Source of the DNA: Armatimonadota bacterium
Lineage (GTDB): Bacteria > Sysuimicrobiota > Sysuimicrobiia > Sysuimicrobiales > Humicultoraceae
Direction of reading: 5' to 3'
Length of the DNA stretch: 35,365 nt
NCBI GenBank assembly: GCA_052386995.1
Contig: JBQTJP010000109.1
Coordinates: 1 to 35,365, forward strand
A model generated the notes under the pieces. That model did no database searches and had not been told where the DNA came from. It worked only from the letters and a program-made list of their open reading frames with translations. Shown one piece after another: positions 30,296 to 32,755 of this stretch; position 1 is the first letter of the stretch; each line of letters opens with the position of its first letter. The position numbers were made by a program, and so were the translations under genes.

Positions 30296-30829
30296 CTACT
30301 TCAAGCACAGCAGAACTGCCGTCAGCGTCAGCCCATCGGTAATCGCCCGGTCCCTGACCATTTGCCAGATCTCTTCCTTTGAGAATGCACGGACCTCGAG
30401 CACCTCGCCCGTATCGAACGCGCCCGAGTTCTCGGTTGCCCGGCAGCGGACAATGTGGAAGACCTGGTTGGCCATCCCGTTGACGGGGTGATAGGAGTAG
30501 ACATGCTCGCCCTCAGTGGAGTGGTAGCCTGTCTCTTCCAAGACTTCTCGCTGTGCGGCTTCGGTGATCGACTCACCGTCCTCAACATATCCGGCGGGCA
30601 GCTCCCATGACGTGGCGTCCGTCGCGTACCGGCAGATACGGGCGAAAAGCACGCGGCGATCGGCGGTCTCCGCTACGGCCGCGACGGCGGAGCGGTGGAA
30701 ATCCAACAGATGGTGCTGTTCCACGATGCTGCCATCGGGAAACCGCACTCTGTCCACGTAGAGATTCACCCACGGGCTCTGGTAGATGACAGTCCTGGAC
30801 AGTCGTTCGGGCTTCGCGTATGTCTCCAC
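30296..30829 (-). CDS. Nudix hydrolase (ADP-ribose pyrophosphatase-like)
   Basis: Complete Nudix box GYVEDGESITEAAQREVLEETGY, WELPAG, ITDGLT; GGAGG RBS before GTG 30829. Confidence 0.88.
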   Translation of the reverse strand: METYAKPERLSRTVIYQSPWVNLYVDRVRFPDGSIVEQHHLLDFHRSAVAAVAETADRRVLFARICRYATDATSWELPAGYVEDGESITEAAQREVLEETGYHSTEGEHVYSYHPVNGMANQVFHIVRCRATENSGAFDTGEVLEVRAFSKEEIWQMVRDRAITDGLTLTAVLLCLK

Positions 30830-30881
30830 GTGAGCCTCCGGTCGGGAGTTATTGTTCGTGTTTCGACTCGGTCTGATGTTA

Positions 30882-30897
30882 TGAAAGCGCCGCGCCT
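30882..30897 (+). repeat. Left sub-terminal inverted repeat of the IS
   Basis: TGAAAGCGCCGCGCCT is the exact reverse complement of 32178-32193. Confidence 0.95.
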
Positions 30898-30959
30898 CCA
30901 GACCGCGAAGATCTTGTCGGTTACCAGAACGGCAAGATCCGCAGAGAGGAGGCGCAGCG

Positions 30960-32003
30960 ATGCAATACATAGCCTTCGATGTGCACAAGCGCTACACCTG
31001 GGCGCGGGTGGAGCGCGCGGACGGAACGGTCGTGCGGGAGAAGAAGATCGTCCACGAGAGTGGAGCGCTACGGCAGTTCTTGGCCGGCTGTGAGCCGGGC
31101 TCACCCGTGGCCGTGGAGACGGTCGGCAACTGGTACTGGATCGTGGACGAAGTGGAGGCAGCCGGGTGTTGTCCCCAACTGGTACATGCTCGCAAGGCGA
31201 AGCTAATGCTGGGGACGGTGAACAAGACGGACCGCCTGGACGCTCGAGGACTGGTGCGGTTACAGCGGACGGGGACGCTCCCGGTGGTCTGGATTCCACC
31301 TCGCGAGCTGCGGGATGCGCGCGAGCTGCCACGCACCCGGATGGTGCTGGTGGCGCAGCGCACGCGGCTCAAGAATCGGATCCACGCCACGCTGAACAAG
31401 TACGGCCTCCTGCTGCCTGACGTCTCGGACCTCTTTGGACAGCGCGGTCGTCACGAACTGCGTGCGTGCTTGACTGAGCTCCCGCCCCAGACGGCCTTCG
31501 TGGTCTCGCGACTGCTCGAGCAGGTCGACGGACTGGATCGGGACATCGAGGCGCTGGAACAGCGGATGGGCGAGCTCTTCGAGGTGGACGACGCGACCCG
31601 GTTGCTGCTGACGCTCCCAGGGGTAGGGTTCATCCTGTCGATTGTGCTCCGCACGGAGATCGGGGACGTCCGGCGCTTTGCCAGCAACGAGCACCTGGCG
31701 GCGTATGCGGGCACGGTGCCGCGGGTGCACGACTCGGGTGGGCGCCAGCACTATGGGCCCGTGCGGGCGGATGTCAACCGGTACCTGAAGTGGGCCTTTG
31801 TCGAAGCGGCCAACGGCGTCTGCCGGAATCGTCGTCGCAAGCACGCTCAGCGGCACATCAGCCGGGTGTACGAACGGGTCACCACGCGCAAGGGACACCA
31901 GAAGGCAATCGTGGCGGTGGCCCGGCACCTGGCGGAGGCCACCTACTGGATGCTGACCAAAGGAGAGTCGTATCGCGAACCCGCGGCGTCCAGGGGAGCG
32001 TAA
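30960..32003 (+). CDS. IS110 family transposase/recombinase (DEDD RuvC-like plus Tnp domain)
   Basis: AFDVHK (D), VAVET (E), KTDRLDA (D,D), [21 protein letters not shown] (conserved Ser), AVARHL; AGGAGG RBS; 347 aa, uninterrupted. Confidence 0.96.
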
Positions 32004-32125
32004 GCGCGTACTCGGTCCTGAGCCCATTGAGGCTCGTCGGTCTGATTGCGACACGCTCCCAGGACATCCTCATGCCCTTGCTAAGGGCGAAGAGATGGAT
32101 CCGGCGAATCGGGTTGAGGGACGTC
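31988..32125 (+). ncRNA. Predicted bridge/seek RNA of the IS1111-type element (boundaries approximate)
   Basis: Nested stems enclose ACTCGGTCC (32010-32018) and TCGGTCTGAT (32037-32046), matching the two target flanks, and AGAGATG (32091-32097), matching the element end plus core. Confidence 0.75.
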
Positions 32126-32172
32126 GAGGGACATAGGAGGGACACACAAAGGAGAAGGTCGGTCAACGGGGG

Positions 32173-32178
32173 TTGACA
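32173..32178 (+). promoter_or_regulatory. Outward-facing -35 hexamer at IS right end (junction promoter half)
   Basis: Perfect TTGACA exactly 17 nt before the GATG core. Confidence 0.65.
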
Positions 32179-32193
32179 GGCGCGGCGCTTTCA
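32178..32193 (+). repeat. Right sub-terminal inverted repeat of the IS
   Basis: AGGCGCGGCGCTTTCA is the exact reverse complement of 30882-30897. Confidence 0.95.
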
Positions 32194-32236
32194 GAGATGG
32201 ACCGAGTTGCCGGCCCTTCTCCCTCGGCGAACAGCC

Positions 32237-32650
32237 TTATGGGGTCGCACCGGACTGATGCTCATAGTTCCGAATGATCATAGCGCTGGCTGGCTGCATG
32301 CCGAATATAGAGTAGAACCGCTGCAGCTGTGGATCGCAGACGGTATCAACCATGTAAAGCTTCCCCAGACGGCGCAGTATTCTTCGCATGAGTTCGCTAC
32401 CGATCCCTCGTCGCCGGTAGGCTGGCAAGACCTCTAGAAACGGGACGTAAGCGCTCAGGATTCCATCTGTAACGGCCGTAACAAATCCTACGACGTCACC
32501 AGACACGTCGTCGATAGCGAGCACAAAGACATCGCCGCTCGCCAAGAGTCTCCGATGCATGGCAGGCGTCGGCGGGTTTGGCCAACCCTCAAAGAAACCC
32601 CGAAGTCTCCATGCGTCAGTGCCCTCGAGCGTCTCAACGTATCTGATCAT
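32237..32650 (-). CDS. GNAT family N-acetyltransferase
   Basis: VVGFV, LEVLPAYRRRGIGSELM acetyl-CoA motif, RFYSIFG; GGGAGG RBS. Confidence 0.9.
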   Translation of the reverse strand: MIRYVETLEGTDAWRLRGFFEGWPNPPTPAMHRRLLASGDVFVLAIDDVSGDVVGFVTAVTDGILSAYVPFLEVLPAYRRRGIGSELMRRILRRLGKLYMVDTVCDPQLQRFYSIFGMQPASAMIIRNYEHQSGATP

Positions 32651-32726: not shown

Positions 32727-32755
32727 CGAGTTCGAACTCGTTCCGGAACGAGTTC
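32727..32755. repeat. Two overlapping perfect palindromes
   Basis: CGAGTTCGAACTCG (32727-32740) and GAACTCGTTCCGGAACGAGTTC (32734-32755). Confidence 0.8.

Follow-up and report, generated by a model that had tools for sequence, protein, structure and literature searches.

A complete IS1111-type element with a predicted bridge RNA at a palindromic repeat of an Armatimonadota bacterium

Recombinases of the IS110/IS1111 family of insertion sequences (IS) are said to have been described as RNA-guided in 2024. These enzymes are already under engineering. Here we report on a 35,365-nucleotide (nt) stretch of DNA from an Armatimonadota bacterium (assembly GCA_052386995.1, contig JBQTJP010000109.1, positions 1–35,365; hereafter the window), in which positions 30876–32199 form an IS1111-type IS110-family element of 1,324 base pairs (bp), counting one copy of its core. 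We consider it very probable that this is a complete element with a bridge RNA whose loops read the target and the element's own joined ends. This reading draws on observed anatomy and conservation, on covariation within the RNA and between its guides and both the flanks and the element ends, and on empty target sites.

The closest described relatives in kind are the IS1111 seekRNA elements ISEc11, ISPa11, ISKpn4, and ISPst6. In the available sections of Siddiquee et al. 2024 (PMC11187229), these encode a 330–350-amino acid (aa) DEDD transposase with a G..P....SG motif, have sub-terminal inverted repeats and a longer non-coding region downstream of the gene, and lack an internal promoter, with one forming at the circle junction. 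The seekRNAs contain two short segments that match both target strands, the top-strand match lying 5′ (section 9). The window element resembles them in all these respects, its junction promoter being predicted here. ISPa11, like the window element, targets a repetitive extragenic palindrome (REP). The palindrome targeted here is different from those of the seekRNA elements in that source, and the window element is known from sequence alone.

The second point of comparison is IS621, as set out in the available parts of Durrant et al. 2024 (PMC11208160) and Hiraizumi et al. 2024 (PMC11208158). The IS621 bridge RNA has a target loop and a donor loop that read both strands around a 2-nt core, and its guides covary with target and donor. 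It also has handshake dinucleotides and interrupted pairing with one donor strand. Each of these has a counterpart at this locus, as does the composite DEDD and serine active site (PMC11208158), here by alignment. Several differences stand out. The RNA in the window lies 3′ of the gene, whereas that of IS621 lies in the left end; the strand order within each loop is reversed, with the complement of the top strand first; the core is TG or CG rather than CT; and the inverted repeats are long (14 bp). Similarity to the IS621 protein is marginal (E 9.5e-8 over 73 residues). Finally, ISPpu9 and ISPpu10 of Pseudomonas putida, as described in the available parts of PMC12288879 and bioRxiv 10.64898/2026.03.19.712850, likewise insert into a multicopy extragenic palindrome; going by these descriptions, host lineage, target, and element all differ from those in the window.

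The element sits exactly at the centre of a palindrome, in the layout ACTCGGTC - TG - element - TG - GACCGAGT. Because TG is the sole duplicated sequence that fits the palindrome, we read the core as TG and the element as 30876–32199. Its parts outside the RNA are as follows.

30866–30873, + strand: left half of the target palindrome, ACTCGGTC; the uninterrupted palindrome occurs 11 times elsewhere in the genome.
30874–30875, + strand: core dinucleotide TG, left copy, common to both junctions and fitting the 18-bp palindrome.
30876–30882, + strand: left-end terminal extension ATGTTAT; the family consensus is the core followed by AT(N)nATGAAAGC.
30883–30896, + strand: left sub-terminal inverted repeat GAAAGCGCCGCGCC, 14/14 complementary to 32179–32192.
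30960–32003, + strand: transposase gene, 347 aa (D7, E53, D91, D94, S259), stop codon TAA at 32001–32003.
32173–32178, + strand: TTGACA, candidate −35 box of a circle-junction promoter, with a 17-nt spacer to the junction hexamer GATGAT.
32179–32192, + strand: right sub-terminal inverted repeat GGCGCGGCGCTTTC.
32193–32199, + strand: right-end extension AGAGA and core TG, right copy.
32200–32207, + strand: right half of the target palindrome, GACCGAGT.

The sub-terminal repeats are perfect, and the extensions outside them measure 7 nt on the left and 5 nt on the right, as in IS1111 ends (repeats of ∼7–17 bp with short terminal extensions). The non-coding ends span 84 nt 5′ of the gene versus 196 nt 3′ of it. 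According to section 6 of PMC11187229 and the parts available of PMC11208160, sub-terminal repeats and a longer 3′ non-coding region are what separate IS1111-type from IS110-type elements.

The transposase fits the same assignment. Pfam PF01548 (54.8 bits) and PF02371 (72.5 bits) both match it, and it reaches 237.4 bits with NCBIfam NF033542 ('IS110 family RNA-guided transposase'; cut-off 140). The best solved relative is the IS621 recombinase (8wt6), on whose catalytic D11, E60, D102, D105, and S241 the residues D7, E53, D91, D94, and S259 align; the roles of the IS621 residues are taken from the available part of PMC11208158. The uninterrupted open reading frame (ORF) encodes the N-terminal DEDD RuvC-like domain, the C-terminal Tnp domain, and all the catalytic residues (D/E/D/D and the serine of the SG pair) that characterize the IS110 family. 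At 347 aa it falls within the IS1111 size range, and residues 251–260 form the GL-P----S(t)G motif defined in section 6 of PMC11187229, with T replacing L. Overall, the protein stands far from characterised members: its identity to the transposase of IS4321, which is a named IS1111 element, is only 23.5% with 97% of the length covered, and relatives in a plasmid collection are at most 34% identical.

The 3′ end of the element encodes a predicted RNA with a conserved structure. We collected 80 loci encoding relatives of the transposase (42–79% identity) and aligned 54 of their 3′ ends (alignment A1). The alignment strongly supports a five-helix structure in an RNA of ∼132 nt (31981–32112), in which two internal loops lie inside one long-range helix, P1. 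The elements of the structure are the following.

31981–31990 / 32103–32112, + strand: closing helix P1 (A1 columns 4–13 / 154–163); 9/10 pairs changed on both sides, 76.5% of cells paired.
31994–32001 / 32053–32060, + strand: basal stem of the target loop, GGGAGCGT / ACGCTCCC, with compensatory changes in all 9 pairs.
32005–32008 / 32047–32050, + strand: inner stem CGCG / TGCG, near-invariant, with one G-U pair in the window.
32010–32018, + strand: right-target guide ACTCGGTCC, complement of core G and GACCGAGT.
32020–32035, + strand: apical hairpin GAGCC-CATTGA-GGCTC (32020–32024 / 32031–32035); 4/4 modelled pairs compensatory, 90.7% of cells paired.
32037–32046, + strand: left-target guide TCGGTC, core TG, and handshake-like AT.
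32062–32073, + strand: predicted donor-binding loop, 5′ strand GGACATCCTCAT; CA at 32071–32072 faces the core.
32074–32088, + strand: donor-loop hairpin GCCC-TTGCTAA-GGGC (32074–32077 / 32085–32088); 97.2% of cells paired, 3/4 pairs compensatory.
32089–32102, + strand: donor-binding loop, 3′ strand, with AGAGATG (32091–32097) and GA (32098–32099).

Standard pairs occupy 87.2% of the cells of A1, versus 70.0% after shuffling (a value reached by none of 500 shuffles), and pairing drops to at most 38.7% when partners are slid by 1–3 columns. Changes on both sides occur in 25 of the 31 pairs. In the inner stem three pairs are invariant in 54/54 sequences, and the fourth, a G-U pair in 53, is G-C in the remaining one; the stem is therefore conserved, yet uninformative for covariation. 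A covariance model built from A1 finds a single match in the element's own genome, at 110.9 bits, full length and within the range of the relatives. Across 83 sources it yields 77 matches behind a transposase gene, 76 of them full-length and one cut by a contig end. Run against the 3′ end of IS4321, the same model found nothing on the right strand, and Rfam 15, searched at E up to 10 over 30700–32400, gave three chance-level matches and no family for this RNA. The closest plasmid-borne relative, from the haloarchaeal Natrinema plasmid NZ_CP082247.1 (34% identity), has an RNA-model match at 715–863 (12.8 bits, E 0.009) that lies upstream, not downstream, of its transposase gene and is too weak to use.

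Much of this structure had been seen in an earlier, unaided look at the window (the original prediction), whose GTCC/GGAC, basal, inner, and apical stems are all present when the DNA is read base by base. Its claim that the 5′ stem overlaps the stop codon is borne out: T32001, the last base of the basal-stem 5′ strand, is the first base of TAA, and the 5′ strand of P1 also falls within the end of the transposase ORF. Its proposal of an IS1111-type RNA 3′ of the gene, reading both sides of the insertion site with the right guide first, agrees with the NF033542 and Pfam assignments, the conserved fold, and the covariation. The target loop that it described as the RNA is real and makes up only half of a two-loop bridge RNA. 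The outer GTCC/GGAC stem (31988–31991 / 32062–32065) competes with P1 for the same 5′ bases. Although present in the window, it is not conserved: its pairs form in 31, 45, 17, and 28 of the 54 sequences, with both-side changes in 0, 0, 1, and 2, and in the family the long-range P1 helix takes its place.

The target loop matches the insertion site. ACTCGGTCC (32010–32018) is the reverse complement of GGACCGAGT (32199–32207), and TCGGTCTGAT (32037–32046) is identical to 30868–30877, as originally noted. The right-flank guide comes first, complementing the top strand of the right flank, and 32037–32044 repeat the top-strand sequence of the left flank and core. The guides had been described as 9–10 nt long in right-then-left order. 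The order stands, and the 10 nt on the left resolve into six of flank, the 2-nt core, and two handshake-like nt. On both strands of the window, ACTCGGTCC occurs twice (expected 0.48), in the loop and at the right junction only; TCGGTCTGAT likewise occurs twice (expected 0.10), in the loop and at the left junction only. This confinement makes chance unlikely. TCGGTC is shared by the two loop strands and the target is palindromic, which makes the matches interdependent within the window.

The comparison was extended to relatives of the element. Loop-1 strands were taken from the model-based alignment, and element ends were called by sequence patterns for the conserved terminal motifs. The 76 distinct records gave 59 usable right flanks and 60 usable left flanks, the rest running off the contig or having no recognisable end; one truncated guide was dropped, and one representative was kept per distinct guide. 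For the 39 distinct right guides, the longest common stretch averages 6.33 nt with the own flank versus 3.17 with other flanks (95th percentile 5). For the 34 distinct left guides, contiguous matches beyond the core average 3.94 versus 0.36 (95th percentile 2). On each side the own-flank mean is reached by none of 10,000 permutations, in a test that ignores relatedness among the elements. Individual relatives illustrate the point. L004 (79% protein identity) keeps the target of the window element, with CG in both loop strands and at the right end, and, by eye, at the left junction. In L005, GCCG replaces GGTC in each of the loop strands and each of the flanks. L020 (74% protein identity) has CG at both junctions and in both loop strands. 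The original prediction had named identical loops at different targets as the outcome that would overturn it; L004, L005, and the permutation results instead show loops that change with their flanks. A conserved two-strand target loop, guides that change with the target, and a top-strand match 5′ of the bottom-strand match are the properties expected of a bridge RNA or seekRNA.

Two further observations concern targeting among the relatives. L005 has TG at its left junction and CG at its right junction, with CG in both RNA loops, which would fit an insertion whose core mismatch was resolved differently at the two junctions. Five relatives (L010, L011, L013, L015, and L023) adjoin sequences like the T-arm of transfer RNA (tRNA) (GGTTCGAATCC / GGATTTGAACC), which suggests that tRNA genes may be the targets in that branch.

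The second loop (32062–32102) follows the ends of the element, as the first follows the flanks. In its 3′ strand, AGAGATG (32091–32097) repeats, letter for letter, the final 7 nt of the right end, core included (32193–32199). Across the relatives, identity between this strand and right-end positions is 0.98, 0.88, 0.98, and 0.95, with mutual information (MI) up to 1.18; the variable positions of the strand track the right end with identities of 0.98 and 0.88 and MI of 1.00 and 1.18 (43 distinct elements). The 5′ strand contributes C32068, which covaries as the complement of left-end position +3 (MI 1.07, complementary in 70%). A contiguous complement of the left end in this strand was considered and set aside, as covariation supports an interrupted match only. 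The interruption recalls the discontiguous donor pairing of IS621 in the available part of PMC11208160. A match of the second loop to the joined ends is thus seen in the 3′ strand and weakly in the 5′ strand.

On each 3′ strand, the two bases that follow the core match the other DNA partner. AT at 32045–32046 corresponds to the first bases of the element, and core plus two bases equal the head of the left end in 32/41 distinct cases. GA at 32098–32099 corresponds to the dinucleotide that opens the right flank; both post-core bases match the right flank in 20/49 distinct cases, versus 7.1 after shuffling (0/10,000 shuffles reach this). In the available text of PMC11208158, the handshake guides of IS621 behave likewise, the bases beside the core matching the other DNA.

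The target exists without the element. The genome comprises 326 contigs (3.47 Mb, 66% GC), and the REP-like 18-bp palindrome ACTCGGTCCGGACCGAGT occurs in it as 11 exact and four one-mismatch copies besides the occupied site, versus 1.4e-4 expected. A TG-centred variant of the site, CCTCGGTT-TG-GACCGAGT, lies on contig C302 (111–128) as a degenerate palindrome that is empty in the assembly; contig C318, which has a 127-nt overlap with the end of C302, starts within the left half of this palindrome. We also surveyed relatives G001–G040. The exact palindrome is present in 11 of the 24 searched genomes of the same family (1–13 copies; one carrier, G010, is flagged as unpublished) and in none of the 16 searched genomes from other families of the same order, and a reversed control pattern was absent everywhere. 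A search of 40 relatives for an empty site at the same locus found the acetyltransferase neighbour in 1/40 at E ≤ 1e-20, without usable synteny.

Palindrome copies are often paired ∼1.3 kb apart (C74:4741–6117, C155:20536–21855, C220:7083–8467, C79:1346–2649, and C294:2028–3471; loci L089–L091). Each pair brackets a gene for a 385–395-aa protein with an HNH-like C-terminus; PF01844 matches one copy at 21.5 bits against a cut-off of 21.4, and another copy has no match. The gene is multicopy, with 14 matches of 56–100% identity in the genome. Since the palindrome brackets this repeated gene, the element may home on the edges of a second repeated unit that is possibly selfish.

A sister palindrome, ACTCGTTCCGGAACGAGT, differs by two symmetric changes and has five exact copies, one in the window 530 bp to the right of the element (32736–32753) and the others on C76, C229, C242, and C294. 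In DNA run X1, a low-depth contig (record 3, depth 2.3) is a variant of 31914–32063 with 10 differences; among them are 32015 G>T and 32018 C>T, with which the right guide reads ACTCGTTCT in place of ACTCGGTCC and fits the sister palindrome. Perhaps this contig comes from a sister copy, present in that sample, that was retargeted naturally. On contig C240 (∼1484–1600; L003), a ∼115-bp mini-element with left end GATGTTATG and a right end like that of the window element is flanked by the sister half-site GGAACGAGT, with a further HNH-like gene copy next to it. Its appearance is that of a sister element, now decayed, whose target was the sister palindrome.

A consensus scan of the + strand found no sigma-70-like promoter inside the element. 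TTGACA at 32173–32178 stands 17 nt from GATGAT (4/6), a hexamer that forms only when the ends join, and a comparable −35 box with a junction −10 box is found in 43/48 distinct elements. Section 8 of PMC11187229 describes IS1111 elements as having no promoter except one formed at the circle junction, in agreement with this arrangement. We infer that a circle-junction promoter would drive the element.

By analogy with the published mechanism of the family, transcription, binding of the RNA by the protein, strand exchange, and programmability can be pictured as follows. The element would excise as a circle, whose joined ends would create the promoter (TTGACA, 17 nt, GATGAT). This promoter would drive the transposase gene and the ∼132-nt RNA (31981–32112) on one transcript, the RNA starting inside the last codons of the gene. 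Loop 1 would read the target, and loop 2 would likewise read the joined ends of the element, with the two post-core bases of each 3′ strand matching the other DNA partner like the handshake guides of IS621. The DEDD/Ser transposase would then exchange strands at the TG core, and the element would land in the centre of the REP-like 18-bp palindrome.

Several observations weigh against this account. The 11 exact palindrome copies are all centred on CG, whereas the first core base of the element is T at both junctions and in both RNA loops; most visible target copies therefore mismatch at that base. Only 7/10 pairs of P1 form in the window. The folding and covariance check proposed in the original prediction succeeds through the covariation in the alignment and between guides and flanks, but the single-sequence fold does not outperform shuffles (z = −1.52) and has the guide strands pairing with each other; support for the structure therefore had to come from the alignment. 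The link between the donor-loop 5′ strand and the left end is weak, with one clearly covarying position and a recurrent mismatch. Flank matches are poor for some guides (3–4 nt for 7/39 on the right, 0–1 nt for 3/34 on the left), in part owing to the pattern-based calling of element ends, and the disregard of relatedness in the permutation test belongs here as well. The assembly holds one full copy, and among public runs no RNA run is listed as holding this DNA.

The single copy, the core mismatch, and the missing RNA run would also suit a fossil: an IS1111-type element, once active and no longer moving, whose guide-flank match records a past event. Decayed relatives occur in the same genome, namely the mini-element on C240 and a solo right-end-like remnant, GGCGCGGCGCTTTCAGAGAcGGACCGAGT, on C81 (17743–17771; L002), which has neither a transposase gene nor a left end beside it. 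However, the ORF is uninterrupted with its full catalytic set, the inverted repeats match at 14/14 positions, and the RNA is full length and scores within the range of its relatives. Compared with the region, the contigs of four DNA runs yielded neither a circle junction nor a joint spanning the element, though contigs cannot show absence. One 49-nt contig (X1, record 5, depth 3.35) joins the right end (32179–32208) to the C302/C318 flank, at the second TG-centred site that is empty in the assembly. Some of the population may carry a second insertion there, or the contig may stem from a solo end similar to that on C81; because a solo end is possible and X1 may be the assembly's own source, the contig is only a weak hint of movement. 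On balance, we consider a fossil unlikely. The original prediction called the element intact, which holds for gene, RNA, and ends at the level of the sequence.

A second alternative is that the flanks (ACTCGGTC ... GACCGAGT) are the outermost inverted repeats of the element itself, and that the loop reads ends rather than a target. The junction regions are indeed mutually inverted well beyond the sub-terminal repeats, and the right flank recurs beside the right-end-like remnants on C81 and C240. Yet the two halves are joined without the element at the 11 exact loci and in 11 of the 24 same-family genomes, and such empty sites imply that the palindrome halves are not terminal repeats of the element. 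Moreover, relatives with near-identical ends have unrelated flanks that the loop-1 strands follow, and it is a different loop (32062–32102) that follows the ends. We regard this alternative as very improbable. That the matches are short GC-rich coincidences beside a transposase gene in a 66% GC genome has next to nothing to recommend it: each match alone is only 9–10 nt and at least two copies of the 9-mer appear in 9/100 shuffles, but each match links a junction exactly to one strand of a single conserved internal loop, and the same relation holds, with other sequences, across dozens of relatives.

The element occupies a ∼90-bp spacer between an acetyltransferase gene (32237–32650, − strand) and a NUDIX gene, and may separate the latter from upstream transcription. 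As listed, the NUDIX ORF (30296–30988, − strand) begins at a TTG within the element, so that its first ∼50 residues come from element and junction DNA; the true start is probably near 30831.

How new is this element? The original prediction offered it as a new programmable tool, which overstates its novelty: in the parts available of PMC11208160, the IS1111 group of ISfinder already has predicted bridge RNAs in 93.0% of its elements, and the element therefore belongs to a known kind. By sequence-level criteria it would be placed in the IS1111 group among bridge RNA and seekRNA elements and does not represent a new mechanism. The invariant motif of its clade, GATTGCGA(C), has no occurrence, in this or its U form, in seven supplement files of PMC11208160 (two of them in part); neither it nor the variant GAATGCGA, sought here only, occurs in six supplement files of PMC11187229, ISfinder lying outside the scope of both searches. 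We entertain, tentatively and with considerable doubt, the idea that the element represents a deep-branching, uncatalogued IS1111-like clade that may still move and may home on the borders of another selfish element.

The clade of the window element has members in many uncultivated lineages of soil and groundwater and in a few archaeal bins, and its predicted bridge RNA is compact (132 nt), with a single closing helix and the handshake bases on the 3′ strands. The locus offers a clean natural case, in which an element, its empty targets, a sister target family, and decayed sister elements occur in one genome. Some 40 naturally reprogrammed guide sets mark the programmable positions (∼8 nt on the right, 6 nt on the left, the 2-nt core, and 2 + 2 handshake nt), which provides groundwork for developing a compact IS1111-type recombinase that is distant from those of enterobacteria. 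The finding also bears on how such elements exploit the palindromic repeats of their hosts.

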